From positions 64,962 to 128,961 of the forward strand of contig JACQXK010000065.1 of assembly GCA_016208765.1 (NCBI GenBank): DNA of 64,000 nucleotides. Reading direction: 5' to 3'. Made by a program: the position numbers and the translations under genes. Below the pieces are notes generated by a model that was not told the DNA's origin, did no database searches, and saw only the letters and a program-made list of their open reading frames with translations. This DNA comes from Candidatus Omnitrophota bacterium (GTDB taxonomy: Bacteria; Omnitrophota; Gorgyraeia; Gygaellales; Profunditerraquicolaceae). Shown here piece by piece: positions 7,635 through 34,602 of this stretch. Each line of letters begins with the position of its first letter. The stretch's first letter is position 1.

Positions 7635-7949
7635 ATGTATGCAGTTGTTGAAGTTGGAACTAAGCAGTATTTGGTAAATAAGGGTGATGTTGTTGAAGTG
7701 GAAAGGCAGATTATTGCGGCTGGTGAAGAAATGCTTTTAGATAAAGTGCTTCTGGCTGTTAGTGACGACAAGGTTGAGGTTGGGCAGCCGTATCTTAAAG
7801 GAGCAGTGGTTAAAGCTGAGGTTGTAGATGAAATTAAAGCTAAAAAGGTGATTTCTTTCAAATACCGCCGTCGTAAATCTTCACATTGGAAAAAAGGGCA
7901 CCGTCAAAAGCTGACCAGGATCAAGATAAAAGAAATTAAGCTTAGTTAA
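7635..7949 (+). CDS. rplU: 50S ribosomal protein L21
   Basis: MYAVVEVGTKQYLVNKGD... is a classic L21 N-terminus. 104 aa. Confidence 0.95.
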   Translation: MYAVVEVGTKQYLVNKGDVVEVERQIIAAGEEMLLDKVLLAVSDDKVEVGQPYLKGAVVKAEVVDEIKAKKVISFKYRRRKSSHWKKGHRQKLTRIKIKEIKLS

Positions 7950-12455: not shown

Positions 12456-13827
12456 TAAAGAAATTTCATTCGGGACTGACGGCTGGAGAGGCATTATTGC
12501 CGATAACTATACTTTTAAAAACCTGAAAATTGTTTCTCAGGCAGTAGCTGACTATATGGGTAGCGGTAAGAAAATCGTAGTCGGATTTGATACTCGCTTT
12601 ATGTCGGGAATATTCGCCCAGATTGCGGCAAATGTGTTTAGTGCCAATGGAATGGAGGTTGTTCTTTCTGACCGCCCTACTCCGACGCCTACTTTAAGTT
12701 TTGCCGTAAAAACCAAGAAATTTGATTTAGGTATTATGATTACCGCATCGCATAATCCTGCTGAATATAATGGTTTTAAAATTAAAAATGCATCCGGAGG
12801 CGCTGCTGCAAAGGAAGTAACCAATGCGGTTGAGACCTTATTGGGAAAGAGCCCTGTAAAAGATGGGCCTTCTGAGCAAACACCAGTGAAAAAAGAAGAT
12901 TTAACCAAGGCATATGTGAAATTTATCCGTTCATACATTGACCTAAAGAAGATCAAGTCAAAAAAGTTTAAGGTGTTGGTGGATTCTATGTATGGTTCAG
13001 GAGACAGCTTTATTGCCGAAGTGCTCAAGGGGACGAATATAAAACTTGAGTTTATGCGTAACACTATTAACCCTTCATTTGACGGGAAGCGCCCGGAGCC
13101 GGTGGAGGATAATTTGAGTGTATTAAAAGAAAGAGTAAAAAAGGAGAAATTTGATTTAGGAATTGCCCTTGATGGAGATGCAGACAGGATTGCGGCAGTT
13201 GCTCCCGGAGGAGTTTTTATCCATCCGCAAAAAATACTGGGTTTACTCGCTTTGCATTTAAATCAGGACAGGGGTTGGAGCGGCGGGATCGTAAAGACGA
13301 TCTGCGGCACGACCATGATTGATAATATTGCAAGTTTCTTGAATGTAAAATTATATGAGACTCCTGTTGGTTTTAAATATATTTCCAATCTTATGGAAAC
13401 ACAAGATGTAGTCGCCGGTGGAGAGGAAGCAGGCGGCATGGGCGTAAAAGGGTATATTCCCGAGAGAGATGGCACAGTAGCGGGTTTATTGCTTTTAGAA
13501 ATGATGGTTTATCGCAACAAAGATATTTTAAAGATTTTAAATGAGACTGAAAAGAAATTTGGCAAATATTATTATGTGCGCGATGATCTGCATTTATCGC
13601 ACAGGGTTGAGCCAAAGAAAGAAAATTTACCTACTGAATTACTGGGGAAAAAAGTTATTGAAATTAAAGATTATGATGGAATTAAGCTGATTTGCGAAGA
13701 CCAGAGCTGGCTTATGTTCCGTGGTTCAGGGACAGAGCCGATCATGCGCTTGTATGCTGAAGCAAAAAGTTTAATTCAGGCAAAGAAACTTTTAGCGCTT
13801 GGCAGGGAAATTATCCTTAAGGAATGA
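12445..13827 (+). CDS. phosphomannomutase/phosphoglucomutase family protein
   Basis: Active-site TASHNPAEYNGFK phosphoserine loop with a four-domain length of 460 aa. TASHNP favours PMM/PGM over GlmM. Confidence 0.85.
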   Translation: MATNKEISFGTDGWRGIIADNYTFKNLKIVSQAVADYMGSGKKIVVGFDTRFMSGIFAQIAANVFSANGMEVVLSDRPTPTPTLSFAVKTKKFDLGIMITASHNPAEYNGFKIKNASGGAAAKEVTNAVETLLGKSPVKDGPSEQTPVKKEDLTKAYVKFIRSYIDLKKIKSKKFKVLVDSMYGSGDSFIAEVLKGTNIKLEFMRNTINPSFDGKRPEPVEDNLSVLKERVKKEKFDLGIALDGDADRIAAVAPGGVFIHPQKILGLLALHLNQDRGWSGGIVKTICGTTMIDNIASFLNVKLYETPVGFKYISNLMETQDVVAGGEEAGGMGVKGYIPERDGTVAGLLLLEMMVYRNKDILKILNETEKKFGKYYYVRDDLHLSHRVEPKKENLPTELLGKKVIEIKDYDGIKLICEDQSWLMFRGSGTEPIMRLYAEAKSLIQAKKLLALGREIILKE

Positions 13828-17256: not shown

Positions 17257-17262
17257 TTGCGC

Positions 17263-18282: not shown

Positions 18283-19152
18283 ATGAAAGGGATAATTTTA
18301 GCAGGTGGAAAAGCTACGCGGTTATATCCGATCACCAAGGGTGTTTGTAAACAATTGCTGCCGGTGTATGATAAGCCGATGATTTATTATCCGCTTTCTG
18401 TGTTGATGTTAGCCGGGATAACAGAGATATTAGTGATTTCAACTCCAAAAGATTTGCCGCGTTTTCAGGATCTGTTAGGCGACGGAAGCGAATTGGGCCT
18501 TAAAATATCTTATGCCGGACAGCCAAAACCTGCAGGAATAGCCCAAAGTTTTATTATTGCAGAAGAATTTATCGGCAAGGACAAGGTTTGTTTAATTTTA
18601 GGGGATAATATCTTTTTCGGGCATAACCTGACTCAATTACTTAGCGAAGCTGCAGCGCTAAAGGATGGTGCCTGTATTTTTGGTTACTATGTTAAAGACC
18701 CTCAGCGTTACGGGGTGGTTGAGTTTGACAAAAAGTGCAGGGTAATTTCTATTGAAGAAAAGCCAAAGAAACCCAAATCCAAGTGGGCAGTATCCGGGCT
18801 TTATTTTTACGATAACAAAGTTGTTGATATAGCAAAGAAGGTTAAGCCTTCAGCAAGAGGAGAATTGGAAATTACTTCGGTAAATAACGCCTATATTAAA
18901 ATGGGTAAATTAAAGGCAAAGTTTCTCGGCCGAGGGCATGCCTGGCTTGATACGGGAACATATGATTCTTTGATTGATGCCTCAACATTTATCAAAACTA
19001 TTGAGGAGAGGCAGGGGCTAAAGGTGGGCTGTGTTGAAGAGATCGCATATCGTTCTGGATACATTAATAAAAATAAATTACTCAAGCTTGCACAGAAGAT
19101 CCCTACATCTTACGGTGAATATCTAAAAAGGCTGATACAAGATGAAATCTAA
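18283..19152 (+). CDS. rfbA: glucose-1-phosphate thymidylyltransferase
   Basis: [18 protein letters not shown]...[16 protein letters not shown] is the RmlA signature. Confidence 0.9.
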
Positions 19153-19960
19153 TATTTTGATTTTAGGTAAAGGTTATATCGGAGATAAACTGCGCTCAGT
19201 TTTAAATTGTAATATTTCAGGAGCAAAGATTGGCTCATTTAAAGAAGCTGAAAAAGAAATCTTGAAATATAAGCCAAAGGTAATTATTAATTGTATCGGC
19301 CACATCGGAAAAAATGTTGACTACTGCGAGCTGGATAAGGATAAGACTTTGTTTTCTAATGCTTTTTTGCCGGTTATCTTAGCCGAGGTTGCTTTAAGAA
19401 ACCGTATGAAGCTTGTGCACATTTCAAGCGGATGCATTTATAATTATGAATATGGGGTTACAAAGCCAATTACAGAGAATAAAGTTCCTGATTTTTTTAA
19501 TTTATTTTATTCAAGGAGCAAGATTTATTCTGAAAGAGCTTTGCTGCCGCTTGCGGATCGGTATAATATTCTAATTGCTAGAATCCGTATCCCCCTTGAT
19601 AATGTGAGCCATCCTAAAAATATTCTTAATAAGCTTATAAATTACAAAACGGTTATTGATATACCCAATTCTGTAACTTATATTCCTGATTTCGTAAAAG
19701 CTGTCCGGTATTTAATTAAGATTGATGCGAGAGGAGTGTATAATATTGTCAATAAGGGTACTTTGAGGTATCCTAAACTACTTGATGAATATCGCAAATA
19801 CTGCCCTGATTTTAAATATAAATTAATTAGTTACAAGAAAATGGGTTTAGTGCGCACAAACCTGATTTTATCTTCAGCGAAATTAGAGAACACAGGTTTT
19901 AAAGTAAGAAACATAGATGAGGTAATTCCAGAATGCGTAGAAAATTTCGTAAAATTTTAG
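19142..19960 (+). CDS. rfbD: dTDP-4-dehydrorhamnose reductase-like (RmlD family) protein
   Basis: RmlD substrate-binding-domain pattern ([11 protein letters not shown]...NVDYCE...HISSGCIY...YSRSK). Lies between rmlA and rmlB. Confidence 0.6.
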
Positions 19961-20922
19961 TTACCGGCGGTGCTGGGTTTATTGGCAGCGCTTTTGTGCG
20001 GCTTGCGGTTAAGAAGGGCATTCTGCCTGTAATTGTTGATAAGCTTACTTATGCGGGGGATTTAGCGCGTTTAAAAGAAGTTGAATGTAAATACAAATTT
20101 TACAAGGTTGATATTTGTGATAAGCCTCGCCTTGAAGCAGTGTTTGCTAAAGAAAAACCGGATGCTGTTATTCATTTTGCTGCAGAGAGCCATGTTGATA
20201 GAAGCATAAAGGATGCCTCTCCTTTTATTGAGGCAAATATTCGCGGCACACAAATTCTTCTGGATACTGCACTTAAAAATAAAATAAAGAAATTTGTGCA
20301 TATTTCCACAGACGAGGTTTATGGAGACATAGAAAAGGGGAAATTTTCAGAGGAATCTCCGTTAAAACCAAATAGCCCTTATGCGGCCTCAAAGGCTGCT
20401 GCGGATTTGTTGGTAAAGTCGTATGTGAGGACATTTAAATTTCCGGCGCTAATTATCAGGGCAAGCAATAATTATGGGCCATGGCAATATCCGGAGAAGT
20501 TTATCCCGCGGGCAATCTTGACTGTCCTAAAGAACAAGAAGATTCCTGTTTATGGAAAAGGGTTAAACGTTAGGGAGTGGCTTTATGTAGAAGATTGCGC
20601 GCTTGGTATCTGGCAGGTTTTAAAAAGAGGAAAAATCGGAGAGGTTTATAATTTGGGGAGTGGCTACGAAGAAAAGAATATTCAAATAGCAAAAAAGGTT
20701 TTAAGTATTATGCAAAAGTGTTGGGTTGGAATTGAATTTGTTAAGGATAGGCCAGGACATGATATTAGGTATAGCTTGAGTGTTCAGAAAATCTTAAAGC
20801 AGGCCGGATGGCGTGCGCAGACTAATTTAGATGCCGGTTTAAATAAAACTGTTAATTGGTGCATTAAAAACAAGCAGTGGTTGTTTGGTAAATGGGAAGA
20901 GATTAATAAGCTCTACAAATAA
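19933..20922 (+). CDS. rfbB: dTDP-glucose 4,6-dehydratase
   Basis: Extended SDR with TGGAGFIGS and YAASKAAADLLV (YxxxK). 329 aa. Confidence 0.85.
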   Translation: MRRKFRKILVTGGAGFIGSAFVRLAVKKGILPVIVDKLTYAGDLARLKEVECKYKFYKVDICDKPRLEAVFAKEKPDAVIHFAAESHVDRSIKDASPFIEANIRGTQILLDTALKNKIKKFVHISTDEVYGDIEKGKFSEESPLKPNSPYAASKAAADLLVKSYVRTFKFPALIIRASNNYGPWQYPEKFIPRAILTVLKNKKIPVYGKGLNVREWLYVEDCALGIWQVLKRGKIGEVYNLGSGYEEKNIQIAKKVLSIMQKCWVGIEFVKDRPGHDIRYSLSVQKILKQAGWRAQTNLDAGLNKTVNWCIKNKQWLFGKWEEINKLYK

Positions 20923-21981
20923 ATGTCTGTAGTTATTGTTACTGGTTCCTGTGGTTTAGTTGGCTCTGAAGCGGTGAGCTTTTTTTGTGAAAAGAAATTT
21001 GATGTTGTGGGCATTGATAATAACATGCGCCGTAGTTTTTTTGGCCCTGATGGTGATGTGAGTTGGAACAAAAAACGTTTAAATAAACTTTACAAAAATT
21101 ATAAGCACAATGCACTTGACATTCGTAATGCCGAAGGCGTAAATAAATTATTTAAGAAATATTCAGGCGAAGCTGTATTAATTATTCATGCTGCGGCACA
21201 ACCTTCGCATGACTGGGCAGCAAAGTCTCCACAGGTTGATTTTGGGGTTAATGCCAATGGCACGCTTAATTTGCTGGAGGCATTTAGAAAGCATTGCCCG
21301 CAGGCGGTTTTTATTTTTACCTCAACCAACAAAGTTTATGGTGACCGCCCAAATTCACTGCCGCTGGTTGAGTTAAAGACAAGGTTTGAATTACCTCCTA
21401 AGCATGAATATTATGAAGGTATAAATGAATCAATGAGTATTGATAATTGCCTGCATAGTTTATTTGGGGCATCAAAAGTAGCTGCGGATGTTTTAACTCA
21501 GGAATACGGAAGGTATTTTGGTTTTAAGACAGGAGTTTTCCGGGGAGGCTGCCTGACAGGGCCTGCGCATTCAGGTACTATGCTGCACGGATTTTTATCA
21601 TATCTGGTGCGTTGCTGCATTACCGGAAAGAATTATTCAGTTTACGGCTATAAAGGAAAGCAGGTCAGGGATAATATCCATTCGCAGGATTTGATCAATG
21701 CTTTTTATCAATTTTTTAAGGCACCTCGTTCAGGAGAAGTGTACAATATCGGAGGAAGCCGTTTTGCAAATGTTTCCGTCTTGGAAGCAATTGAAATTTC
21801 TGAAAGAATCTGCAAAAAGAAAATGAATTACGAATATGTTGATAAAAATAGAATTGGTGACCATATCTGGTGGATAAGCGATGTCTTTAAATTTAAGTCG
21901 CATTACCCTGATTGGGATTATAAATATAATGTTGAGGATACAATAAGAGAAATTTTTGAGATGCAGAAGGGGGTAGTGTGA
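20923..21981 (+). CDS. NAD-dependent sugar-nucleotide epimerase, CDP-paratose/tyvelose 2-epimerase-like
   Basis: TGSCGLVGS Rossmann motif. [29 protein letters not shown] closely resembles the tyvelose-epimerase core. YGASKVAAD (YxxxK). Confidence 0.65.
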
Positions 21982-23048
21982 AATATAAATTTATTTTAAT
22001 TACCGGCGGAGCTGGTTTTATCGGCAGTAACCTTGCAATTTCCTTTAAGCGTAAATACCCAAAAGTAAAAGTCCTTGTTTTAGATAATCTAAAACGTAGA
22101 GGCAGCGAACTTAATATTATCCGCTTGAAAGAAAGCGGAGTTTCTTTTTTGCATGCAGATATCAGGAATCCTGAGGATTTGGTTTTTGAGTGCCCTCCGG
22201 GATTACTGATTGAATGTTCAGCAGAGCCATCAGTAATGGCTGGAGTAGGAGATAACCCGCTGTATGTGGTTAATACAAATCTCACAGGAACAGTTAATTG
22301 TCTGGAGTTAGCCAGAAAAAGAAAGCTGGATGTGATATTTCTTTCAACAAGCAGAGTTTATCCTTATGGAGCTATTAATGAGATTAAGGCCCGTGAATCG
22401 GCGATAAGATTTGAATGGAGCTCCGGGCAGAAGATAAATGGCTGGTCAGTTGATGGGATTAATGAATCATTTACACTTGGAGGAGCAAAAACCTTGTATG
22501 GAGCAACAAAGCTTTGCTCAGAAATTTTATTACAGGAATATATTCAGAATTATGGTATTAAGGGCGTGGTTAATCGTTGCGGAGTTGTTGCAGGGCCATG
22601 GCAGTTTGGAAAAGTAGATCAGGGAATTTTCACTTTTTTAATGCTTGCGCACTTTTATAAAAAGCAAATAAAATATATTGGTTTTGGCGGGAAAGGCAAA
22701 CAGGTAAGGGATATTTTGCATGTTGATGACCTTCTTAGATTAATAGACCTGGAAGCTGGTAACATGAGCAAGGTTAACGCAGAGGTTTATAATATTGGCG
22801 GAGGTAACAACAGCAATCTCTCTTTAATTGAAACAGTAAGATTATGCGAAAAGATTACTGGAAGCAAAATGGAAATTAAGGGTGATTCTAATACTCGTCC
22901 AGGAGACATAAAGATTTATATTTCAGATAGCAAGAAAGTAGCCCATGATTTGGGATGGCAGCCGCAAGAAAGCCCCGGGGAGATTCTAGAAGATATTTTT
23001 AGTTGGATCAAGGAGAATGATTCTTTAGTTAAGGAGAGTTTGATATGA
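21978..23048 (+). CDS. second CDP-paratose 2-epimerase-like SDR (tandem paralog)
   Basis: [11 protein letters not shown] and [14 protein letters not shown]...YNIGGG, the same family as the preceding gene. GTG start overlapping the upstream stop. Confidence 0.6.
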
Positions 23049-23311
23049 CCTCGGTCTGGCCATTAATCGGTGGGACTGCTGCTACCTTAACTATGTTTGG
23101 TTTTGTGCCCCAGATTCTCAAAGTGCTTAAACATAAATCAGCAAAAGATGTCAGCGTGATTACAATCTTACAGTTTCTTGTGGGCGTTTCTTTTTGGATG
23201 GTTTATGGCCTGTATTTGCAGGATTATATTATTATTGTGGCAAACGCAGTTACTTTATTAACTTTGGTTGTTTTGTTATTTTTGTATTTTTCCTATGGGA
23301 GGGAGCAATGA
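23045..23311 (+). CDS. SemiSWEET (PQ-loop, 3-TM) sugar transporter
   Basis: 88 aa with three TM helices and a PQ motif in TM1 (FVPQILKVLKHKSAKDVS). Strong resemblance to characterised bacterial SemiSWEETs. Confidence 0.65.
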   Translation: MTSVWPLIGGTAATLTMFGFVPQILKVLKHKSAKDVSVITILQFLVGVSFWMVYGLYLQDYIIIVANAVTLLTLVVLLFLYFSYGREQ

Positions 23312-24294
23312 AGAAAAGGAAGGCATTAATTACCGGTATTGACGGGCAAGACGGGTCATATTTATCTGAGCTATTGTTAGAAAAAGGTTACGGAGTTTAT
23401 GGGATCGTAAGGAGGGTTGCCCTTGAGGATCCTGAACATCATTTGTGGAGAATCAGGCATTTATTAAATAAAATTAATATTTATTCCGGTTCACTTGAAA
23501 GTTATCCGAGCATTTTTAAGGTCGTAGAGAAAGTAAAACCGGATGAGTGTTATCATCTGGCAGCGCAAAGTTTTGTCAGTTATTCTTTTGAGGATGAGTT
23601 CTCAACCATTAATACAAATATAAACGGTACACATTTTGTACTCTCGGCAATAAAAGAACGGGCGCCTAAATGTAAGTTTTATTTTGCAGCTTCAAGTGAA
23701 ATGTTCGGCCATGCCAAAGAAGTGCCGCAGAATGAATTTACACCGTTTCATCCGCGCTCGCCTTATGGGATTTCAAAGGTAGCTGGTTTTGATTTAACCC
23801 GTAACTACCGCGAAGCGTATAATTTATTCGCCTGTAATGGTATTTTGTTTAATCATGAATCTCCTCGCCGTGGTTTTGAGTTTGTTACTAGAAAGATTAC
23901 AAATACAGTCGCCGAGATAAAACTTGGGCTTTCCAAGGAATTGAAACTTGGTAACCTTGAGGCAAAACGCGACTGGGGATTTTCAGGGGATTATGTTTTG
24001 GCAATGTGGCTGATGCTACAGCAGGATAAACCGGATGATTATGTAATTGGCACCGGAGAGACTCATACTGTAAAAAAATTTGTGGAGCTGGCATTTGGCT
24101 ACGCTGGGCTTGATTGGAAGAAGTACGTGAAGAAGGATGAATTATTGTTCCGCCCGGCTGAGGTCAATGTGTTGCAAGGCGACTATAGCAAAGCAAAGAA
24201 AATCCTCGGCTGGAAACCCACGGTGAAATTTGAAGATTTGGTAAAGATGATGGTGGATGCTGATTTGGAGAGGCTGAAGAATAGGGTTTGTTAA
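23308..24294 (+). CDS. gmd: GDP-mannose 4,6-dehydratase
   Basis: MKKRKALITGIDGQDGSYLSELLLEKGY is the canonical Gmd N-terminus. The ATG at 23308 overlaps the SemiSWEET stop (ATGA). The ORF-track start at 23194 is rejected. Confidence 0.9.
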   Translation: MKKRKALITGIDGQDGSYLSELLLEKGYGVYGIVRRVALEDPEHHLWRIRHLLNKINIYSGSLESYPSIFKVVEKVKPDECYHLAAQSFVSYSFEDEFSTINTNINGTHFVLSAIKERAPKCKFYFAASSEMFGHAKEVPQNEFTPFHPRSPYGISKVAGFDLTRNYREAYNLFACNGILFNHESPRRGFEFVTRKITNTVAEIKLGLSKELKLGNLEAKRDWGFSGDYVLAMWLMLQQDKPDDYVIGTGETHTVKKFVELAFGYAGLDWKKYVKKDELLFRPAEVNVLQGDYSKAKKILGWKPTVKFEDLVKMMVDADLERLKNRVC

Positions 24295-26298: not shown

Positions 26299-26991
26299 AT
26301 GGTTTCAGTAATTCTGCCAACTTATAATGAATCGGAAATTATCTTAGATTTAATTAATTCATTATTAAAGATTATAAAAGAGCCATTAGAAGTTTTAGTC
26401 ATAGATGATAATTCTCCTGATTTAACTTGGGGGATTGTAGAAAAATCGCATATTTCTAATGTGAGAGTTATAAGAAGAATGAATGAAAGAGGTTTGGCTA
26501 CGGCTATTGACAGAGGAATTAAGGAGTCAAAGGGTGATATTGTCGGCTGGATGGACGCAGATATGAGCATGCCTCCAAGCGTGATACCTGGGATGCTTTC
26601 TGCGTTAAGGGATGCAGATATTGCAATTGGGTCGCGTTATGTTCCTGGTGGTAAAGATGCGCGTGGGTTTTTCAGGGCGCTAACTAGCAAGATTATCAAT
26701 TGGTTTGCCGGGTTATTGCTGGGTTTTGACATAAGGGATTATGACAGTGGGTTTATTGTTCTTAAGAAATCAGTGTTTAGCAAGGTTAATTTTCCAAGCC
26801 ATGGATATGGAGATTATTTTATTGAGTTTATTTATAAATGCAAGAAAGCAGGTTTTAAGGTTAAAGAAATTCCTTATATTTTTACAGACAGAAAGCTGGG
26901 TAAGTCTAAGACACAGGCTTCTTTGTTGGGCTTCTTCAAACTTGGCTCTGGCTATATAAAAAGGATTATTGCAATAAGGTTTTCTAAGTAA
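26299..26991 (+). CDS. GT2 polyprenyl-phosphate sugar synthase (dolichol-phosphate mannosyltransferase-like)
   Basis: VSVILPTYNE...VIDDNSPD GT-A motifs. 230 aa soluble form. Confidence 0.75.
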   Translation: MVSVILPTYNESEIILDLINSLLKIIKEPLEVLVIDDNSPDLTWGIVEKSHISNVRVIRRMNERGLATAIDRGIKESKGDIVGWMDADMSMPPSVIPGMLSALRDADIAIGSRYVPGGKDARGFFRALTSKIINWFAGLLLGFDIRDYDSGFIVLKKSVFSKVNFPSHGYGDYFIEFIYKCKKAGFKVKEIPYIFTDRKLGKSKTQASLLGFFKLGSGYIKRIIAIRFSK

Positions 26992-27012
26992 TTTCTCAGA
27001 AAGGAATTTGTT

Positions 27013-27432
27013 ATGGCAGAATTTATTAAATCAAAGAAGGGAACGTTGATTGCTGTTATTTTGCCTCGTAAACTGGAAACCAAAGGAGTTACCTTTTTTA
27101 CTCCTCCTGATTTCTCTCAACAGGTTGGTTTATTGTGCCATAAAAAAGGAGCCGAGGTAAAACCGCACGTGCATAAAATAGTGCACCGTAAAGTTGCAAT
27201 TACTCAGGAAGTTCTGCACGTTAAAAAAGGAAAAATTGCCGTATACTTGTACGATGAAAACAGAACACTTGTTGCGACTAGGATACTAAAGAGCGGAGAC
27301 ACAATATTATTGGCAAATGCCGGGCATGGGATCAGGGTTTTGGAGGATAGCCTGATGCTTGAGGTTAAGCAGGGCCCGTATGCCGGGGTTGACGATAAGG
27401 AATATATTGAAAAAAGAAAGAAGCATAAATGA
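27013..27432 (+). CDS. small cupin-fold protein (WbuC- or FdtA/WxcM-like), possible sugar ketoisomerase
   Basis: 139 aa, beta-rich with a His cluster (HVHKIVHRK...H). Sits next to a DegT-family aminotransferase. Confidence 0.35.
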   Translation: MAEFIKSKKGTLIAVILPRKLETKGVTFFTPPDFSQQVGLLCHKKGAEVKPHVHKIVHRKVAITQEVLHVKKGKIAVYLYDENRTLVATRILKSGDTILLANAGHGIRVLEDSLMLEVKQGPYAGVDDKEYIEKRKKHK

Positions 27433-28544
27433 TACCTGTTAATCAGCCGTATCTTGGTAAAGAAGAATTAAAGAATGTTATTCAGTGTGTAAAAAGCGGA
27501 TGGATTTCCTCAAAAGGTCAATTCATTAAGCGTTTTGAAGAAGAGTTTGCTGAATATTGTGGAATGAAATACGGGATTTCTGTAACTAGCGGTACAACCG
27601 CGCTTCATCTTGCACTTTTATCTTTGGGGATTAAAGAAGGCGATGAGGTAATTTTGCCAACATTTACTATGGTTGCCTCGGCTTATGCGGTGTTATATAC
27701 AGGAGCGAGGCCTGTTTTTGTTGATAGTGAAGAGCGAACCTGGAATATGGATTGCGCGAAGATTGAAGAAGCAATCACTAAGCGTACAAAAGCAATTATG
27801 CCGGTACATATTTATGGGCATCCGGTTGATATGGATTCGGTGATGAGGCTGGCAAAGAAATATAAGCTTTATGTTGTTGAGGATGCTGCTGAGGCACATG
27901 GCTCGGAATATAAGGGCAGAAAATGCGGAAGCTTTGGTGATTTTGGTTGTTTTAGTTTTTATGCCAATAAGATTATTACAACTGGTGAAGGTGGGATGGT
28001 GGTCACCAATAATAAAAAACTTGCCGAGAGGGCAGAATTGCTAAAAGATCTTTCACATTCACCGGGAAAGCGTTTTTTGCATACTGATCTTGGGTATAAT
28101 TATAGAATGACAAATATGCAAGCAGCAGTTGGGTTGGGCCAATTGCACAAGATTAAATCTTTTATTAGCAAAAAGCGCCAAATGGCAAGCCAGTATTCTG
28201 AAGAATTAAAAGTAGTACCTGGATTGCGCTTTCCGTTTGAGGAGGATTGGGCAAAAAGCGTTTATTGGATGTATTCAATCTTAATAGAAGATAGTTTTGG
28301 CTTAACAAGAGATGAGTCCCGGGATAAATTGCATTCTCAAGGTATTGAAACGCGAACTTTTTTTGTTCCTATGCACCAGCAGCCGGTAATTCGTAAACTT
28401 TGCCCGGAAGCTAATAGAAAGAAATACCCTGTTGCTGATTATATTGCACAAAAAGGGCTTTATTTACCGTCGGGTTTGGCTATAACAAAAGGCGAGATTC
28501 ATAGAGTTTGTAATGTTATCAAAAAGATAAAGAAGAGCATTTAA
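27429..28544 (+). CDS. DegT/DnrJ/EryC1/StrS family PLP-dependent sugar aminotransferase
   Basis: AEAHGSEY...FSFYANKIITTGEGGMVVTN, with the PLP lysine in NK. Confidence 0.85.
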   Translation: MIPVNQPYLGKEELKNVIQCVKSGWISSKGQFIKRFEEEFAEYCGMKYGISVTSGTTALHLALLSLGIKEGDEVILPTFTMVASAYAVLYTGARPVFVDSEERTWNMDCAKIEEAITKRTKAIMPVHIYGHPVDMDSVMRLAKKYKLYVVEDAAEAHGSEYKGRKCGSFGDFGCFSFYANKIITTGEGGMVVTNNKKLAERAELLKDLSHSPGKRFLHTDLGYNYRMTNMQAAVGLGQLHKIKSFISKKRQMASQYSEELKVVPGLRFPFEEDWAKSVYWMYSILIEDSFGLTRDESRDKLHSQGIETRTFFVPMHQQPVIRKLCPEANRKKYPVADYIAQKGLYLPSGLAITKGEIHRVCNVIKKIKKSI

Positions 28545-28548
28545 AATT

Positions 28549-29967
28549 ATGTTATTTAATGATTATAAAAAAAGTTTTATTGTAGCGCACCTTTGTTTTT
28601 TATTGTCCTTGTGCGCGGTATATTTTATTCCTACCATTGCTTCATTGATTGGCGATAGTGTTCTGCCTCCGATGAATAAGCACCTGCGTTTTTATATTAT
28701 ATTTATTTTTAGCCTTGTGTTTATTTTTTATCTTTTAGATTTGTATTATTGTAACAAGATTAGGTTATTTGAATCAGGTAAAAGTATTTTGTCAGGTTAT
28801 TTCTGGGTTAGCACTGTTTCTGTAATGGTTTTTTTGTGTTCTTCTTATGCGTTACTATCTAGCGATTTATTTGAATATTCTTTACGCGCAAGAATGCTTA
28901 GTTTGTATAATTTAAATCCCTACTTGAGTGTTCCGGTAAAGATAAAACACGATTTTTTCTATCCTATGTTATTCTGGAAGAATACTCCAGAATGTTACGG
29001 CCCATTATGGGTTAATATCGGACAATTGCATTCAATTTTCTTTAAAAACAACATGTTCTTAACTTCTTTTATGCATAAATCCATACTTTTAATTTTCCTT
29101 GGGTTAAGCTCGTTCTCTTTTTATAAACTTGCTTCTCAGTTAAGAATCAAGAATTGCATATTATTGACTGTTGCTTTTTTCATGAATCCTTTGGTAATTA
29201 TTGCTACTATTATTGATGGGCACAATGAGATCGCTATGACGTTTTTTATTTTATTGGCGAGCCTGGCACTTCTACGTTCACGTTATGTTTTGGCTCTATT
29301 TTTATTAACACTGGCAATACAGGTTAAGTTTGTTTATGTTTTAATTGTGCCGTTGTTTATATTATATATTTTCAGAGATACATCTAAAAAGATGCTGTTG
29401 CGTTTTCTTGATATTATTACTGGGGCAGTGTTTTCACTAATTGTCGTTGTTCTTTTATGGTTGCCATTTGGCAAACAAAGCCTCCTTGCTATTATTGAGT
29501 ATTATAAGAACCTGAGTTTAAATTTTTGGTTTGATTCCATTCCTTTTGCTGTTTATTTTCTTTTAGATAAAATGGGGGTTGTTATTGATAAATATAACAT
29601 TGCGACATTGTTTTCTATTGTTTTTGTTTTAATTTATGTTTATCTGTTGGCAAACTTTGTAAGAAGAATTAAGCAGGACCAAAAGATATTTTTTACTACA
29701 GTCAGCCTCATTTTGCTCGCTTTGTTTATTACTAACTCAACTCCTTTTCAGGCGTGGTATTTGCTTTGGGTAATTCCTTTTATTTTGCTTAGCGGCACAA
29801 AAACAAGGTTTTTGCTGGTTTTTCTTTTGTCGTATTTCTTTATTCTTACCTTCTGGAAGAGGATGTCTGTTTTGTTTTTGCCTATGGTTATTTCTTACAT
29901 ATTAGTACAAATTTATTCAACTAAATTTGTAAAAATCAAAGGTTTTTTATATTCACTTGAGGAATAA
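28549..29967 (+). CDS. polytopic membrane protein, putative GT-C-fold (DUF2029-like) glycosyltransferase
   Basis: More than 10 TM helices, no soluble domain. Lies between an aminotransferase and a GT2. Confidence 0.35.
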   Translation: MLFNDYKKSFIVAHLCFLLSLCAVYFIPTIASLIGDSVLPPMNKHLRFYIIFIFSLVFIFYLLDLYYCNKIRLFESGKSILSGYFWVSTVSVMVFLCSSYALLSSDLFEYSLRARMLSLYNLNPYLSVPVKIKHDFFYPMLFWKNTPECYGPLWVNIGQLHSIFFKNNMFLTSFMHKSILLIFLGLSSFSFYKLASQLRIKNCILLTVAFFMNPLVIIATIIDGHNEIAMTFFILLASLALLRSRYVLALFLLTLAIQVKFVYVLIVPLFILYIFRDTSKKMLLRFLDIITGAVFSLIVVVLLWLPFGKQSLLAIIEYYKNLSLNFWFDSIPFAVYFLLDKMGVVIDKYNIATLFSIVFVLIYVYLLANFVRRIKQDQKIFFTTVSLILLALFITNSTPFQAWYLLWVIPFILLSGTKTRFLLVFLLSYFFILTFWKRMSVLFLPMVISYILVQIYSTKFVKIKGFLYSLEE

Positions 29968-29970
29968 GAT

Positions 29971-30687
29971 ATGTATTTGTCCATAATTATACCGGCTTAT
30001 AACGAAGAAAAAAGATTAGCTGTAACCCTTGATAAAATACGCGGATATTTAGAAAATAAGAATTTTGATTTTGAAGTTATTGTAGTTGATGATGGCAGTA
30101 AAGATAGAACAGTTGCGGTTTCAGTAAAAAGTCTTTTGTTTAAGGAAGGAAATCTGAAAGTTTTAAGAAATGCAGAAAATAGAGGAAAAGGTTTTTCTGT
30201 GAGGCAGGGAATTTTAAATAGTAAGGGTGAATTTGTTTTATTTAGCGATGCTGACCTTTCTACCCCTATTCAAGAGCTGGATAAGCTATATGAATATATA
30301 AAAAGCGGCTTTGATTTTGTTATTGGTTCGCGCAGCTTAGGAGATTCAGATGTTCAGGTGCGTCAGCCGTGGGTTAGAGAGCGGATGGGAAAGGTTTTTA
30401 ATTATTTTGTAAAACTGTTGCTTGTTTCAGGTTTTAGTGATACCCAGTGTGGCTTTAAGCTCTTAAGACGAGAAGTTGCTTATAAAATTGCGTCTTTGTC
30501 AAAGATCGATGGATTTTGTTTTGATGTTGAAATGCTTTATTTGGCGAGAAAACTTAATTATAAAGTAAAAGAGGTTGGGGTGATCTGGTTAAATTCTGTT
30601 CAGAGCAAGGTTAGGGTTTTGGGGAGTTCCTTTGATATGTTCAAGGATCTTTTACGCATTAAGGCTATGCATAAATGCATTTCATAA
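29971..30687 (+). CDS. GT2 polyprenyl-phosphate glycosyltransferase (DPM/DPG synthase-like)
   Basis: LSIIIPAYNEE...VIVVDDGSKD, DADLSTP (DxD). Confidence 0.75.
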   Translation: MYLSIIIPAYNEEKRLAVTLDKIRGYLENKNFDFEVIVVDDGSKDRTVAVSVKSLLFKEGNLKVLRNAENRGKGFSVRQGILNSKGEFVLFSDADLSTPIQELDKLYEYIKSGFDFVIGSRSLGDSDVQVRQPWVRERMGKVFNYFVKLLLVSGFSDTQCGFKLLRREVAYKIASLSKIDGFCFDVEMLYLARKLNYKVKEVGVIWLNSVQSKVRVLGSSFDMFKDLLRIKAMHKCIS

Positions 30688-32366
30688 AGAAATACCTTTC
30701 TTTTATTTTGGTTGTCTTTGTTGGTTTAATTCTAAGAGCTTGGGGGATCAATTTTGGCCTGCCTTTTCAGTTTCATCAGGATGAGCCGATAGTTGTTAAT
30801 CATGCGCTTGGTTATGGAACTGGAGACTTAAATCCGCATTTCTTTATTATTCCGCCATTTTCGTCTTACCTGGTTTTTCTGGGTTATGTAATTTACTTTT
30901 TAATTGGGAAATTATTCGGAACTTTTGGTTCAGCTCAGGACTTTGCAATGCAGTTTTTCGCTGATCCTACCTGGTTTTACTTAATCGCAAGAATAATCTT
31001 AGGATTAATCCCCGGAGTTGTAAATATAGCTTTAGTTTATCTTTTATACAGAAAGCTATTTGGAGAAAGAGGTTCTTTATATTCAGCTTGTGTGGCCAGC
31101 TTTTCATTTTTAATGGTAACTAACAGCCATTATGCTTATGCTGATAATTTGCTGGTTAGTTTTATTTTATTATCATATATTTACCTTGTAAGAATAACTG
31201 TAAGGCCGGACATAATAAATTATATTTTTGCCGGGTTATTTATCGGGTTGGGCATAGGTACAAAATATAATGCTGGAATTTTGTTAGTGAGCCTTTTTGT
31301 TGCGCACTGGATAGGATTTCAGTCTCAGGAGAATAAAAATTGGTTTAATTATCGTATTTTTACAGCTTTAGGTATTATTGCAGCGACCTTTATTGTTATT
31401 AATCCATTCTCAGCCTTAGACTGGCAGCTTTTCTTGTTTACACTTACAAATAAGATGCGCAGCGGATATGTCGGCTGGGCGCATCATATTTTCTATTCGC
31501 TTAAAGAGGGGATTGGCCTATTATTGGTTTTAGCAGGTTTTATTGGTTTTATCTCTATGTTTTTTAAAGAAAGAAGAAAGGCGGTTTTATTTCTTTCTTT
31601 TCCTTTGATTTTTTATGTTCACCTGGCGATAAAAAGCCAGCCTTATTCAAGATACGCATTGGCACTTGTACCTTTTTTTGCTATTTCTTGTGGATTTTTA
31701 TTTTTTAATGTTATTCTACCGAATACAAAAAACAGGTTTTTAAAATTTATTTTTATGGCAATAGCCTTAAGCGCTCTTTTTCTTACCTTAGTAAAAACAA
31801 TTAAATCCGATTTACTTTTTGCAGGTAAGGACACAAGAGAGATTGCAGCCAATTGGATTGAAGATAATATTCCTGTGTCTTCAAAGATTGCCATGGATCA
31901 TACTTCATTTTCTCCCCCGATTAAACAAAGCCTGGGGCAGATAAAAGAAAAATATGCTTATATAAAGAAGAACCAAATGGCAGAATTAAAAGGAAAAAGG
32001 CTTAATTTATTAATTCAGGCTTTAGTAAATAAGAAAACTTATAATATTTATTTCTTAGCTCAAAAAGACACTGAATTGGAATTTCTTTCTATGTATCCAG
32101 CTGTAGAATTTGATTTGGGGAAGTTACAAAATGAAAATATTGAGTATGTGGTGGTGCATTATAATGTTTTTTATCCTGAGAAGGATGATTTTATTAAGCG
32201 CTTAAAGGAAAATTCAACCTTGGTTGCCCAATTTAGCCCGTATTTTGATAATAAAATCAGGTATGCCTATGATCAAATTGATATTACATGTTTACCAGTT
32301 GAGAGCAAAGAGGTTTATTCAAGAAGGTTTAGCGGGCCAAGTTTAGAGATTTACAGACTTAAATAA
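30675..32366 (+). CDS. GT-C glycosyltransferase, GT39/GT83 (PMT/ArnT)-like
   Basis: N-terminal polytopic domain with a loop-1 DE motif (HQDEPIVV) and a C-terminal soluble domain. Confidence 0.55.
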   Translation: MHFIKKYLSFILVVFVGLILRAWGINFGLPFQFHQDEPIVVNHALGYGTGDLNPHFFIIPPFSSYLVFLGYVIYFLIGKLFGTFGSAQDFAMQFFADPTWFYLIARIILGLIPGVVNIALVYLLYRKLFGERGSLYSACVASFSFLMVTNSHYAYADNLLVSFILLSYIYLVRITVRPDIINYIFAGLFIGLGIGTKYNAGILLVSLFVAHWIGFQSQENKNWFNYRIFTALGIIAATFIVINPFSALDWQLFLFTLTNKMRSGYVGWAHHIFYSLKEGIGLLLVLAGFIGFISMFFKERRKAVLFLSFPLIFYVHLAIKSQPYSRYALALVPFFAISCGFLFFNVILPNTKNRFLKFIFMAIALSALFLTLVKTIKSDLLFAGKDTREIAANWIEDNIPVSSKIAMDHTSFSPPIKQSLGQIKEKYAYIKKNQMAELKGKRLNLLIQALVNKKTYNIYFLAQKDTELEFLSMYPAVEFDLGKLQNENIEYVVVHYNVFYPEKDDFIKRLKENSTLVAQFSPYFDNKIRYAYDQIDITCLPVESKEVYSRRFSGPSLEIYRLK

Positions 32367-32367
32367 T

Positions 32368-34602
32368 ATGGATAAGAGAAAAGACCTTGGTTATATCGGA
32401 TTGTTTGTAGTAATTGTTATTTTTGTTTTTTGGGATGTAGTTATTTTAAAATCCGCTTTTCTTAAAGGTGATTATGCCCAGCAATTTTTCCCCTGGTATA
32501 AGATTTACTCAGATAGTATAAAATCGTTCCATCTTCCTTTGTGGACAAATTATGTCCAGTGTGGGTTTCCTTTATTTGCCGAAGGGCAAATCGGCTCATT
32601 ATATCCTTTTAATTTGCTTTTTTTCTTTTTTCTTCCTTTTAAGGCTGCTTACAATTATTCATTTCTATTTCATTTTGTCCTTGCCGGAGTATTCACGTAT
32701 TTATTTTCAAGAAAATTAAAGGCGGCACCTTCGGGAGCTTTTTTGGCAGCCATACTATTTTGTTTTGGCAGTGTTTATGCCGGTTGTTTTGTAAATACAT
32801 CCAGCTTAAAATCTTTGGCGTATTTTCCGTTAGTCCTGCTTTTGTTTGAAACCTATTTAGAAAAAAGAAAAATCGGCTTTCTATTTTTAATTGGCGTAAT
32901 CGTTGGTTTGCAATTTCTATGCGGGGCAATGCAAATGACTGTTTACGCCCTGTTTTTTTACACAGTTTACTTTATGTATCGCAGCATTATAGAGAAAAGG
33001 CGCCTTATTGTTTGTTTTAAAGAGATAGCATTAATATCAGCTATTTCGTTTATGATTTCTTTGCCGCAATTATATTTTACCTCTGAATTGGCCAGTTATT
33101 CAAACCGTCAGGTTGCAAATCTTGGTTTTAGCCTTTGGAATTCGTTTAACCCATTATCTATGATCGGTGTTTTTCTGCCTTATTTAGGAGGCGTATTTAC
33201 AAAAGGTAATCTTATCTATGTTGGAGTTATTGGTTTTTTCTTTGTTTTTCTTGGAGGTTGGGTTTTTAAAAAAGAAAAAACAACCAGGGCTCTAATTTTG
33301 ATGTTTGTTTTTGCTCTGTTTTTGTCTTTAGGAAAGTTCAATCCAGTTTATGTTTTGTTAATAAAGATTTTTAAGTTTTATTATTTTCGCGCTCCGTCCA
33401 GGTTTGTGTATTTTGTAGTTTTTTCGTTAAGCATTTTAAGCGGGTTAGGTTTTTCTTATTTTAGCCGTGCCAGGCAAGCAATTCCAAAGATCATTTACAA
33501 GATATTTTTTGTCCTTGTGGCGCTATCGCTTGGTTTGGTTCTTACAGTAAAGGCTGTTTTTTATTTCTGGGGCAAGGAAATGCTTTTCTTCCTGAAAGGG
33601 TATGTAAGTAAGCATGTTTTTGGCCAAGTTTATCACCGCTATGATTTAGAAACTTACTTAAACAAAACGGAGTCTTTTTATAATGAAATGCTGGCAAGAT
33701 TTTCTTTTAGTAATCCCGTTGTTATTTTTTCAATAGTTATTTTAGTTTTATCAGCAGCCTTAATCTATTTTCTTAATTCAAAAAGAACGAAGCTGGTAAG
33801 ATCGTTATGTTTTCTTTTAATTTTTATTGAATTGTTTTTCTTTAGCTATATTTCAAGCGCAATCCGGGGAAATCTGGCAAACTTTAAAGATATCTCTCCC
33901 AAGGAAGTTAGTGTGATTTCTTTATTAAGAGATGATAAAGAAATCTCTAGAATTTTACCTTTTGGTGAGTTTAGTTCTTTACCTTCTTGGGCAATGCCAA
34001 GCTTAAACGCATATTACAAAATTGAGAGCGTGGGTTTTTATTCGCCACTTTTAAACCGCGATTATTATCTGGTTGCACAGGATCTTGGGATTGTTGATGA
34101 TTCACTTGGTATTGTCCCTGTTAAAAAAGAGAAGCTATTTGAGAAAATTGACTTAGTAAGAGATTTAAATGTTAAGTATATTATTTCTGACATGGGGTTA
34201 GAAAATTCTAACTTAGAGTTTTTAACGAAAGAAAATGGGAGCTTTCTTTATCGTTTAACTGGTTATAAAAAGCGTTTTGAGTTTATTCCTTCTTGCGGCG
34301 GCTCTAAGGCAGAAATTGAGGTTAAGATGTATGTCCCTGGGGAGTTAAGCCTCATGGTTAGAAGTGAAAGCAGTGGTATTTTTATATTTAGAGAGAAATA
34401 TTATCCGGGGTGGCAAGCTACGATTGATGGAAAAGTTGTTGAAATTAAGAGGTTCAATGATATTTTTCAGTCAATAAAGGTGCCAGCGGGAGAGCAAAAA
34501 ATTGATTTTAGATTTCAGCCCGTTAATCTTAACTTGTTTATGCTGGTATCAGGGCTGGTTTTTATATTTTGTCTCTGGTTTGGTTTAAGGCGGTGTAAAT
34601 AA
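32368..34602 (+). CDS. YfhO-family GT-C membrane glycosyltransferase
   Basis: 744 aa with YfhO N-terminal signature (GDYAQQFFPWYKIY...PLWTNYVQCGFPL) and a large C-terminal extracytoplasmic domain. Confidence 0.7.
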   Translation: MDKRKDLGYIGLFVVIVIFVFWDVVILKSAFLKGDYAQQFFPWYKIYSDSIKSFHLPLWTNYVQCGFPLFAEGQIGSLYPFNLLFFFFLPFKAAYNYSFLFHFVLAGVFTYLFSRKLKAAPSGAFLAAILFCFGSVYAGCFVNTSSLKSLAYFPLVLLLFETYLEKRKIGFLFLIGVIVGLQFLCGAMQMTVYALFFYTVYFMYRSIIEKRRLIVCFKEIALISAISFMISLPQLYFTSELASYSNRQVANLGFSLWNSFNPLSMIGVFLPYLGGVFTKGNLIYVGVIGFFFVFLGGWVFKKEKTTRALILMFVFALFLSLGKFNPVYVLLIKIFKFYYFRAPSRFVYFVVFSLSILSGLGFSYFSRARQAIPKIIYKIFFVLVALSLGLVLTVKAVFYFWGKEMLFFLKGYVSKHVFGQVYHRYDLETYLNKTESFYNEMLARFSFSNPVVIFSIVILVLSAALIYFLNSKRTKLVRSLCFLLIFIELFFFSYISSAIRGNLANFKDISPKEVSVISLLRDDKEISRILPFGEFSSLPSWAMPSLNAYYKIESVGFYSPLLNRDYYLVAQDLGIVDDSLGIVPVKKEKLFEKIDLVRDLNVKYIISDMGLENSNLEFLTKENGSFLYRLTGYKKRFEFIPSCGGSKAEIEVKMYVPGELSLMVRSESSGIFIFREKYYPGWQATIDGKVVEIKRFNDIFQSIKVPAGEQKIDFRFQPVNLNLFMLVSGLVFIFCLWFGLRRCK

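Follow-up and report, generated by a model that had tools for sequence, protein, structure and literature searches.

Why does a gene of a small sugar-transporter family stand inside a run of genes for nucleotide-sugar synthesis? The ORF that raises this question occupies 23045..23311 of the window (the whole 64-kb stretch of Omnitrophota DNA that was analyzed) and encodes 88 aa from ATG to TGA, exactly as the original prediction had described it; like every annotated feature given below, it is on the forward strand (+). The reading that we favor, to which we give about an even chance, is that its product is a canonical SemiSWEET that works as a homodimer in hexose uniport, is expressed together with the glycan locus, and supplies the adjacent pathway.

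Family membership and predicted fold

The protein is a member of the SemiSWEET family. It matches the Pfam models MtN3_slv (PF03083; 42.9 bits, cut-off 23.7) and PQ-loop (PF04193; 37.2 bits, cut-off 22) and the NCBIfam model NF037968 SemiSWEET_2 (81.6 bits, cut-off 80), and the Pfam scan of this ORF gave no match to GtrA (PF04138) at E <= 0.01, which settles the choice between PF04193 and PF04138 that the original prediction had posed. A phmmer search against the PDB recovered four solved SemiSWEETs, namely BjSemiSWEET1 (9kax; E 2.7e-14), LbSemiSWEET (4qnc; 1.5e-13), TySemiSWEET (4rng; 1.6e-13), and EcSemiSWEET (4x5m; 3e-12), so that the close resemblance to characterized bacterial SemiSWEETs holds at E values of 1e-12 to 1e-14. 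All four alignments are ungapped, and these proteins are of the same length class with identities of 34–41% (41% to Bj, 41% to Lb, and 34% to Ty).

The residues that define the family are conserved as well. The PQ motif is P22-Q23 in TM1, aligned with P19-Q20 of LbSemiSWEET, and the pocket residues T16, W51, and N67 correspond to T13, W48, and N64 of that protein; all of these are invariant across 35 homologues. Loss of the PQ motif or of the pocket Trp and Asn, which had been named as evidence against the assignment, is therefore ruled out. The gate residues F20, D35, S37, Y54, and G55 correspond to F17, D32, S34, Y51, and G52 of LbSemiSWEET, and among the 35 homologues S37 is nearly invariant and the others are invariant. 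The roles of the pocket, PQ, and gate residues in LbSemiSWEET have been described (PMC5972207).

The AF2 model of the monomer (pLDDT 86.8) has the predicted three-TM topology, a single triple-helix bundle as in the SemiSWEET class of ~80–100 aa, in which helices 5-17 and 21-30 together make up TM1, kinked at P22-Q23, followed by TM2 (38-58) and TM3 (61-85). Foldseek superposed the model on TySemiSWEET 4rng with TM-scores of 0.86/0.91 and an rmsd of 0.9 Å and on LbSemiSWEET 4qnc with TM-scores of 0.83/0.90. The PQ kink, the Thr/Trp/Asn pocket, and the gate residues are thus common to this protein and to the Bj, Lb, Ty, and Ec proteins, with the predicted fold within 0.9–2.1 Å of theirs. Taken together, the profile matches, the conserved residues, and the AlphaFold model identify a canonical SemiSWEET. 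Identity as a GtrA-like or other small flippase has next to no chance: where GtrA has four TM in ~120–140 aa, this protein has 88 aa and a three-helix model that matches the SemiSWEET fold to an rmsd of 0.9 Å, and the cut-offs of MtN3_slv, PQ-loop, and SemiSWEET_2 are all exceeded while PF04138 gives no match at E <= 0.01. Size and location in a glycan cluster are the only points for such an identity.

Gene neighborhood and junctions

The genes that precede the SemiSWEET gene are rmlA (glucose-1-phosphate thymidylyltransferase, 18283..19152; TIGR01207 at 479 bits, cut-off 361), a divergent RmlD-like SDR reductase (19142..19960; TIGR01214 at only 39.5 bits), rmlB (dTDP-glucose 4,6-dehydratase, 19933..20922; TIGR01181 at 413 bits, cut-off 365), and two CDP-tyvelose/paratose 2-epimerase-like genes, SDR1 (20923..21981) and SDR2 (21978..23048, overlapping the SemiSWEET start). 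The best PDB match of both of these last two is CDP-tyvelose 2-epimerase (1orr, 9rl0; E 1e-39 to 1e-44). Immediately downstream is a gene of the GDP-mannose 4,6-dehydratase family, gmd (23308..24294), with 397 bits to Pfam GDP_Man_Dehyd and 393.6 bits to TIGR01472, slightly below the cut-off of 415. The arrangement of two epimerase-like genes upstream and gmd downstream is therefore as originally predicted. A gene of the phosphogluco-/phosphomanno-/phosphoglucosamine mutase family (12445..13827) belongs to the same conserved upstream block.

Further downstream, the window encodes a short GT2 resembling polyprenyl-phosphate glycosyltransferases of the AglJ, ArnC, PpgS, and Dpm1 type (26299..26991), a DegT-family sugar aminotransferase (27429..28544), a GT-C-type membrane glycosyltransferase that is MptB-like, that is, polyprenol-phosphate-sugar dependent (28549..29967), a second short GT2 of the polyprenyl-phosphate type (29971..30687), and three more GT-C-type genes (30675..36255), classed as PMT_2 (30675..32366), YfhO (32368..34602), and PMT_2 (34603..36255). 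The GT2 and GT-C genes are ~3–13 kb from the SemiSWEET gene and not adjacent to it.

The SemiSWEET gene overlaps both of its neighbors. A Shine-Dalgarno-like AAGGAGAG (23031..23038), read from the sequence, has its GGAG core ~6–8 nt from the SemiSWEET ATG, and this start shares an ATGA (23045..23048) with the stop codon of SDR2 (23046-23048), an overlap also present in L003. At the other end a second ATGA (23308..23311) joins the gmd ATG (23308-23310) to the SemiSWEET TGA (23309-23311), and another Shine-Dalgarno-like element, GGGAGGGAG (23297..23305), lies within the SemiSWEET 3' end and probably serves as the gmd ribosome-binding site. The overlap with gmd that had been predicted is thus present, and it is one of two. 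A scan for promoters and terminators over 14–31 kb of the window returned counts equal to the shuffle expectation. That the ORF is not a chance reading frame follows from two observations: a genome scan with an alignment of 13 SemiSWEET sequences found 393 relatives, and comparison with the 92%-identical L003 orthologue revealed 23 synonymous and 7 non-synonymous codon changes. No homologue was found in a phage collection.

The original prediction took the ATGA as a sign of translational coupling. The entire 64-kb window is coded on one strand, with gaps of 20 nt or less at 53 of its 61 co-directional junctions, those of unrelated housekeeping genes included, and with −4 overlaps at 16 of the 61. 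Because the same overlap recurs at so many junctions, it is a weak sign of special coupling here.

Linkage across Omnitrophota

Co-occurrence with gmd or rml genes in related genomes is pronounced. Among 54 Omnitrophota loci the SemiSWEET orthologue directly abuts a nucleotide-sugar gene in 44 and has one within three genes in 47. Such a gene is immediately downstream in 38 of 52 loci (rmlA in 26, gmd in 7, SDR1 in 3, and rmlB in 2), and 20 of these 38 junctions are −4 overlaps. In L007, L008, and L022 SemiSWEET-gmd is again followed by DegT and GT2 genes within three genes. The SemiSWEET gene is therefore a conserved part of the nucleotide-sugar genes in this phylum, and it differs from the characterized SemiSWEETs in being embedded in, and overlapping, such genes phylum-wide. 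The linkage predicted from this window is real; it is not new, as Jia et al. (2018) reported a SemiSWEET beside rmlA/rmlB in an Omnitrophica genome (PMC5972207). That example, A0A0S8IN18 from Omnitrophica WOR_2, precedes rmlA, whereas the gene described here lies between SDR2 and gmd, and it was a single case without survey or mechanism, whereas the linkage is now counted over 54 loci. Literature searches on SemiSWEETs in Omnitrophota and on MtN3 proteins in O-antigen loci found nothing relevant beyond that paper.

Adjacency must be read against the surrounding gene order. The rpe-pgm-plsC-rpsA-tyrS-...-rml region is a syntenic block throughout the phylum, and since rpsA and tyrS adjoin each other in 38 of 39 cases, adjacency alone is no proof of a functional link. 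It is possible, and to us rather unlikely, that the SemiSWEET gene sits among nucleotide-sugar genes only because it is caught in a frozen, tightly packed, co-directional block, its product being a general small sugar uniporter or serving some other housekeeping transport with no pathway-specific role. Consistent with inherited synteny, tyrS is upstream of SemiSWEET in 43 of 58 loci, tyrS-SemiSWEET-rmlA is the order found most often and has SemiSWEET also overlapping tyrS, and the close packing and ATGA-type overlaps described above pervade the window; sugar-fermenting Omnitrophota, as they are predicted to be, would moreover need a sugar importer. SemiSWEET is 0 to 7 genes from tyrS, yet it keeps to the sugar genes: where it has moved (after rmlB, between SDR2 and gmd, after an rSAM gene, or before a GT2) it remains contiguous with sugar-nucleotide or glycan genes and not with the housekeeping side, which argues against synteny as the whole explanation. 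An NJ tree built on a protein of only 85 aa is too weak to give the order of these rearrangements or to address HGT. The −4 overlap with the downstream sugar gene is also about twice as frequent as in the window at large.

Outside the phylum, relatives in Methanothrix, Auribacterota, Desantisbacteria, and Aquificota and on plasmids are without glycan context; such unrelated neighbors are in keeping with synteny as the cause, and the plasmid-borne SemiSWEETs in particular stand in unrelated gene contexts, unlike those of Omnitrophota. In a second lineage, however, a non-Omnitrophota genome, a related SemiSWEET gene ends a GDP-heptose-like operon, and one Auribacterota SemiSWEET gene adjoins two PMT_2 genes.

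Hexose uniport or movement of lipid-linked sugars

In the mechanism that we infer, with regard to dimerization, transport, substrate, direction, and the linkage as a supply to the adjacent pathway, the 88-aa three-helix protomer would form a parallel homodimer, which would carry a mono- or disaccharide by uniport without energy input, through alternating access with the usual motion hinged at the PQ kink. The gene would be transcribed with the nucleotide-sugar head rmlA, rmlD-like, rmlB, SDR, SDR, gmd of a variable O-antigen-like glycan locus. A free hexose of the glucose or mannose type may then pass inward through the inner membrane, or reach equilibrium across it, be phosphorylated, and pass through a mutase, for example the PGM/PMM product of the same block, which could link imported hexose to RmlA; the hexose phosphate would feed RmlA and Gmd, and glycolysis too. 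Transport of nucleotide sugars was set aside by inference, since the pocket seen in solved SemiSWEET structures accommodates a mono- or disaccharide. Both roles suggested in the original prediction, uptake of a free hexose for this pathway and some other translocation within glycan assembly, are plausible.

The presence of the mutase gene within the same conserved block, the frequent adjacency and −4 overlaps, and the SemiSWEET after the heptose operon count for hexose supply. For Omnitrophota, fermentation of sugars has been predicted, together with sugar transport and EMP glycolysis (PMC10066038). Counting against hexose supply, a Pfam scan of 56 of the window's 64 called ORFs found no sugar kinase. 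The usual gene partners of importers are also catabolic rather than those of nucleotide-sugar synthesis, which tells against it too. The α-glucosidase contexts of SemiSWEETs noted by Jia et al. are catabolic, and the substrates of characterized SemiSWEETs are themselves uncertain (PMC5972207). Two further observations weigh on the same side: the adjacency could be inherited synteny, rpsA-tyrS being equally conserved and short overlaps the norm, and close relatives outside the phylum lack a glycan context.

A further explanation, which we regard as improbable, is that a polyprenyl-phosphate monosaccharide, the product of a Dpm1/ArnC-like GT2, is bound by the dimer at its sugar head group and that the dimer helps to move this lipid-linked sugar to the periplasmic face for GT-C transferases, filling the role of GtrA or ArnE/ArnF and paralleling eukaryotic MPDU1 and CLPTM1L. 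GtrA and ArnE/ArnF are small inner-membrane proteins that cluster with polyprenyl-phosphate GT2 and GT-C enzymes, both of which this window encodes. Because it encodes two such GT2s and four GT-C enzymes, and no GtrA or ArnE/F-type flippase family was matched by Pfam in 56 of its 64 called ORFs, SemiSWEET could be the missing translocator, toward which the evidence points weakly. Outside that scan were the ORFs at 5852-6088(-), 7635-7949, 7989-8942, 1083-1559, and, partial, 63753-64000, and Pfam returned no match for the proteins at 17257-18270, 41599-42822, and 46895-48202. In the 44-kb glycan island, a crude hydropathy count picks out SemiSWEET alone as a small polytopic membrane protein. 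The ~0.99 Mb of flanking DNA gave 34 small hydrophobic ORFs, none of them GtrA/SMR-like, and with a crude TM predictor no GtrA, SMR, or EamA protein was found among the small hydrophobic ORFs of all bacterial loci. L085 and L012 carry Arn-like modules and SemiSWEET without ArnE/F, and the DegT and GT2 genes that recur after SemiSWEET-gmd, like the PMT_2 neighbors in Auribacterota, fit a translocator.

The constant partners of SemiSWEET, however, are cytoplasmic nucleotide-sugar enzymes and not GT2 or GT-C: unlike GtrA and ArnE/ArnF, it is not adjacent to such genes here, and its relatives usually have none detected within 10 kb (Dpm1-like GT2 in 11 of 54 loci and GT-C in 1 of 54, by insensitive single-sequence searches). 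GtrA, with four TM, and ArnE/ArnF, with SMR/DMT-like folds, have no sequence or fold relationship to the three-TM PQ-loop SemiSWEET. Its free-sugar pocket and both gates are conserved as in SemiSWEETs that transport glucose and sucrose, and the subfamily has no charged residue of its own that would suit a phosphate; literature searches found no link of SemiSWEETs to flipping, and the genome could encode a flippase at another site. The eukaryotic parallel rests on the fold superfamily (MtN3/PQ-loop clan) shared with MPDU1 and CLPTM1L, which are implicated in the use or scrambling of lipid-linked sugars: CLPTM1L, placed in the PQ-loop family by its authors, scrambles GlcN-PI, and MPDU1 of the same family is required for Dol-P-Man/Glc use (PMC9169118). 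Both are single chains of 7–8 TM with very low sequence similarity to SemiSWEET. More doubtful still is an extension by which, in Omnitrophota and a few other lineages, the dimer would have been recruited as translocator or escort for polyprenyl-phosphate monosaccharides in place of GtrA or ArnE/F, with a cargo such as a perosamine-like amino-deoxyhexose made by Gmd and the DegT aminotransferase and loaded by the ArnC/Dpm1-like GT2, as a minimal prokaryotic counterpart of MPDU1 and CLPTM1L.

The protein thus conforms well to a known family, and its gene context had been noted in print before. What bacterial SemiSWEETs do for the cell is poorly defined, few having been assayed and their substrates being doubtful, and a subfamily fixed within the nucleotide-sugar genes that head surface-glycan loci throughout a largely uncultured phylum provides a concrete context. 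One outcome would be a minimal hexose supply line for the envelope glycans of ultra-small, sugar-fermenting cells. A less likely one is a protein of the PQ-loop fold that handles lipid-linked sugars, which, if true, would bear on how MPDU1 works and on the flippases that many GT2 and GT-C systems seem to lack.

The SemiSWEET gene and its product

The SemiSWEET open reading frame (23045..23311, + strand; ATG to TGA, 88 aa) starts within an ATGA that holds the stop codon of the upstream gene SDR2 (21978..23048, +) and ends within a second ATGA that holds the start of the downstream gene gmd (23308..24294, +). The four-base overlaps at its 5' and 3' ends are alike, and purine-rich Shine-Dalgarno-like motifs precede both its own start and that of gmd. 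Scanning one genome per GTDB species with a degenerate pattern revealed 393 encoded relatives. In L003, an Omnitrophota MAG locus whose genes are ordered as in the window, the orthologue is 92% identical, differs by 23 synonymous versus only 7 non-synonymous codons, and preserves both ATGA junctions. The relatives, together with the codon pattern and junctions in L003, establish the open reading frame as a real gene.

Its original assignment as a SemiSWEET is secure. The protein scores 42.9 bits with the Pfam model MtN3_slv (PF03083; cut-off 23.7), 37.2 bits with PQ-loop (cut-off 22), and 81.6 bits with NCBIfam SemiSWEET_2 (curated cut-off 80), and phmmer matched it without gaps to the PDB sequences of the Bj (9kax), Lb (4qnc), Ty (4rng), and Ec (4x5m) SemiSWEETs with E values of 1e-12 to 1e-14. 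Identity is 41% to BjSemiSWEET, 41% to LbSemiSWEET, and 34% to TySemiSWEET. The two findings named in advance as speaking against the assignment, a better fit to GtrA and loss of the PQ motif or of the pocket Trp and Asn, were not obtained: the Pfam scan gave no GtrA match at E<=0.01, and the residues are present. Using an ungapped alignment to LbSemiSWEET (offset 3), the pocket residues T16, W51, and N67 correspond to Lb T13, W48, and N64, the PQ motif is P22-Q23, and the gate residues F20, D35, S37, Y54, and G55 correspond to Lb F17, D32, S34, Y51, and G52; each is invariant or nearly invariant in an alignment of 35 subfamily sequences (roles summarized in PMC5972207). The AlphaFold2 model (pLDDT 86.8) has three helices, as the topology proposed earlier requires, with a kink in TM1 at the PQ motif; it superposes on TySemiSWEET with an rmsd of 0.9 A (TM-score 0.86/0.91) and also on the Lb and Ec SemiSWEETs.

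Gene content and junctions of the window

Every called gene of the window except one small ORF lies on the + strand. Type IV pilus assembly genes are followed by RNase G, proB/proA, nadD, and rpe, and then by a PGM/PMM-family mutase gene (12445, +), plsC, rpsA, and tyrS. Between tyrS and rmlA is a gene for a 337-aa repeat-rich protein (17257-18270, +) that has no Pfam or NCBIfam match and has phmmer relatives in 23 of 58 loci; it occupies the slot where SemiSWEET sits in most Omnitrophota. Both rmlA and rmlB exceed the equivalog cut-offs. The rmlD-like reductase (19142-19960, +) is highly divergent (39.5 bits; cut-off 224), and rmlC was not seen beside the rmlA-rmlD-rmlB trio; therefore, the dTDP branch probably makes a 6-deoxyhexose other than L-rhamnose. 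The best PDB relatives of SDR1 (20923..21981, +) and SDR2 are CDP-tyvelose 2-epimerases.

SemiSWEET and gmd are followed by genes for a methyltransferase, a Wzy_C protein, a short polyprenyl-phosphate-type GT2, a WbuC cupin, a DegT aminotransferase, an MptB-like GT-C, a second short GT2, and three further GT-C proteins (PMT_2, YfhO, and PMT_2), and then by B12-radical SAM enzymes, NeuB and CMP-sugar genes, a Wzx-like flippase, and further glycosyltransferases to ~61.6 kb. The run at 26299-36255 (+), which includes both short GT2s and all four GT-Cs together with the aminotransferase and the cupin, resembles stacked Arn/Gtr-like periplasmic glycosylation modules. NeuB, UDP-GlcNAc 2-epimerase-like genes, a HisF/HisH fusion (imidazole-glycerol-phosphate-synthase-like), and two CMP-sugar cytidylyltransferases (37933-45427 and 52650-53423, +) indicate a nonulosonic-acid pathway of the legionaminic or pseudaminic type in the same island. 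The island also encodes three B12-binding radical-SAM enzymes (36385-37692, 49466-50986, and 50999-52648, +) that may be sugar C-methylases or similar; their homologues lie directly upstream of SemiSWEET in the Omnitrophota loci L004, L019, L029, L045, L065, L074, and L075.

The window mixes pilus, housekeeping, and glycan genes in a compact co-directional array of unusual length. Overlaps occur at 28 of its 61 co-directional junctions and measure exactly four bases at 16, and the gap is 20 nt or less at 53; promoter and terminator scans covering 14-31 kb of the window gave counts at background. The ATGA overlap with gmd, originally taken as a sign of coupling, is present and recurs at the junction with SDR2, but with 16 of 61 junctions alike it is ordinary for this genome, and such overlaps per se say little about functional coupling.

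SemiSWEET neighbourhoods in Omnitrophota and other lineages

We surveyed the neighbourhoods of the best 80 of the 393 relatives, mostly from Candidatus Omnitrophota MAGs, by calling ORFs in all loci and labelling them with phmmer, using window proteins as the panel. The prevalence of Omnitrophota among these loci assigns the window to that phylum. A nucleotide-sugar gene is directly adjacent to SemiSWEET on the same strand in 44 of 54 Omnitrophota loci and within three genes in 47; the exceptions mostly come from contigs that are cut short or show a radical-SAM or GT2 neighbour. In the 52 loci with a right neighbour, the gene directly downstream is rmlA (26), gmd (7), SDR1 (3), or rmlB (2), and 20 of 38 SemiSWEET-to-nucleotide-sugar junctions have a -4 overlap, about twice the window background. 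The commonest order is rpsA, tyrS, SemiSWEET, rmlA, rmlD, rmlB, SDR1, SDR2; alternatively, SemiSWEET follows rmlB or a radical-SAM gene, stands between SDR2 and gmd (the order of the window), or immediately precedes a GT2 gene. Beyond this conserved head are variable O-antigen-like clusters with Wzx, Wzy_C, glycosyltransferases, methyltransferases, and carbamoyltransferases. 

In loci L085 (920-10235) and L012 (490-10738), the genes after SemiSWEET encode an epimerase, GT2, carbamoyltransferase, SxtJ, DUF5989, fused SDR/DegT, PMT_2, and GT2; they form an Arn-like amino-sugar lipid-carrier module that includes carbamoylation genes but lacks ArnE/F.

Close relatives from other lineages lack a glycan context in the neighbourhoods inspected. 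The neighbour is DUF2284 in Methanothrix, an M48 peptidase and acetyl-CoA synthetase in Desantisbacteria, and saccharopine dehydrogenase or transaldolase in Deltaproteobacteria-labelled MAGs; contexts are likewise unrelated in Aquificota and Auribacterota and for the plasmid-borne SemiSWEETs of Ilyobacter, Trichlorobacter, and Bacillus. One exception is the pair of non-Omnitrophota loci L083 (5298-10261, GCA_900174565.1) and L051 (8497-10261), where SemiSWEET follows genes for a GHMP kinase, nucleotidyltransferase, epimerase, HAD phosphatase, and transaldolase/FSA; this set looks like a GDP-heptose-type operon and provides a second, independent nucleotide-sugar context.

Methanothrix/Methanotrichaceae archaea contribute 15 of the 80 best relatives (L035, L043, L044, L046, L048, L058, L060, L063, L071-L073, L076, L077, L079, and L081; SemiSWEET at ~10001-10255 in most); their identity of 49-58% matches that of many Omnitrophota orthologues. 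The archaeal gene usually follows that of the DUF2284 metal-binding protein, with no glycan context. In a crude NJ tree the archaeal sequences nest among bacterial ones, which suggests inter-domain transfer. 'Ca. Velamenicoccus archaeovorus', a member of Omnitrophota, lives as an epibiont on Methanosaeta or preys on it (PMC10066038).

As originally proposed, SemiSWEET is truly linked to nucleotide-sugar genes, and the linkage is much more general than a single sequence could reveal, although the ATGA overlap does not signal it. Nor is it new: the window gene is a further member of a known family, and Jia et al. 2018 (PMC5972207), analysing SemiSWEET gene contexts, gave a single nucleotide-sugar example, a SemiSWEET (A0A0S8IN18) beside rmlA/rmlB in an Omnitrophica WOR_2 genome, without survey or mechanism.

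Meaning of the linkage

The main alternative to a functional link is that SemiSWEET is the cell's general sugar uniporter and was merely inherited within a frozen compact block. The housekeeping side is equally syntenic (rpsA-tyrS adjacency in 38 of 39; tyrS upstream of SemiSWEET, 0 to 7 genes off, in 43 of 58 loci), so conserved adjacency alone is weak evidence of function. However, the position of SemiSWEET floats yet remains within sugar genes, which argues for a functional link, and we consider simple inheritance rather unlikely.

It is improbable that SemiSWEET translocates polyprenyl-phosphate monosaccharides, although the window, with its four GT-C transferases and two GT2s of the ArnC/Dpm1/PpgS kind, would need such a protein, and no known flippase family (GtrA or ArnE/F type) was matched in the 56 scanned of its 64 called ORFs. 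By a crude hydropathy count, the 44-kb glycan island encodes no small polytopic membrane protein other than SemiSWEET, and the 34 small hydrophobic ORFs in ~0.99 Mb of flanking DNA include no GtrA- or SMR-like protein. SemiSWEET-gmd with DegT and GT2 within three genes recurs in L007, L008, and L022, the Arn-like modules of L085 and L012 (SDR/DegT, GT2, PMT_2) have SemiSWEET and no ArnE/F, and an Auribacterota SemiSWEET adjoins two PMT_2 genes. CLPTM1L, placed among the PQ-loop proteins by Wang et al. 2022 (PMC9169118), was shown by them to scramble GlcN-PI, and the PQ-loop protein MPDU1 is required for use of dolichol-phosphate-mannose and -glucose by an unknown mechanism (PMC9169118). Our literature search found no paper tying SemiSWEETs to the flipping of lipid-linked sugars or to the physiology of Omnitrophota. 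Against translocation, the genes constantly found with SemiSWEET encode cytoplasmic enzymes, and insensitive single-sequence searches detected a Dpm1-like GT2 within 10 kb in only 11 of 54 loci and a GT-C in 1 of 54. Moreover, the pocket has no subfamily-specific change or added basic residue, and another part of the genome may encode a flippase.

The fully conserved free-sugar pocket and gates, ~40% identity to three assayed sugar transporters, and a near-identical predicted fold point instead to an ordinary SemiSWEET, and since it is embedded at the head of this locus across the phylum, co-expression with rml and gmd is the most economical reading. According to Seymour et al. 2023 (PMC10066038), most Omnitrophota are predicted to live by sugar fermentation and to encode EMP glycolysis as well as sugar transport. 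Identity, fold, residue conservation, and linkage are shown directly; we infer substrate, direction, dimerization, and what the linkage means causally as follows, and give hexose supply an even chance of being correct: a parallel homodimer, co-expressed with rml and gmd, would pass a mono- or disaccharide down its gradient, and the admitted hexose, after phosphorylation and mutase action (the PGM/PMM gene is in the same block), would feed RmlA, Gmd, and glycolysis.
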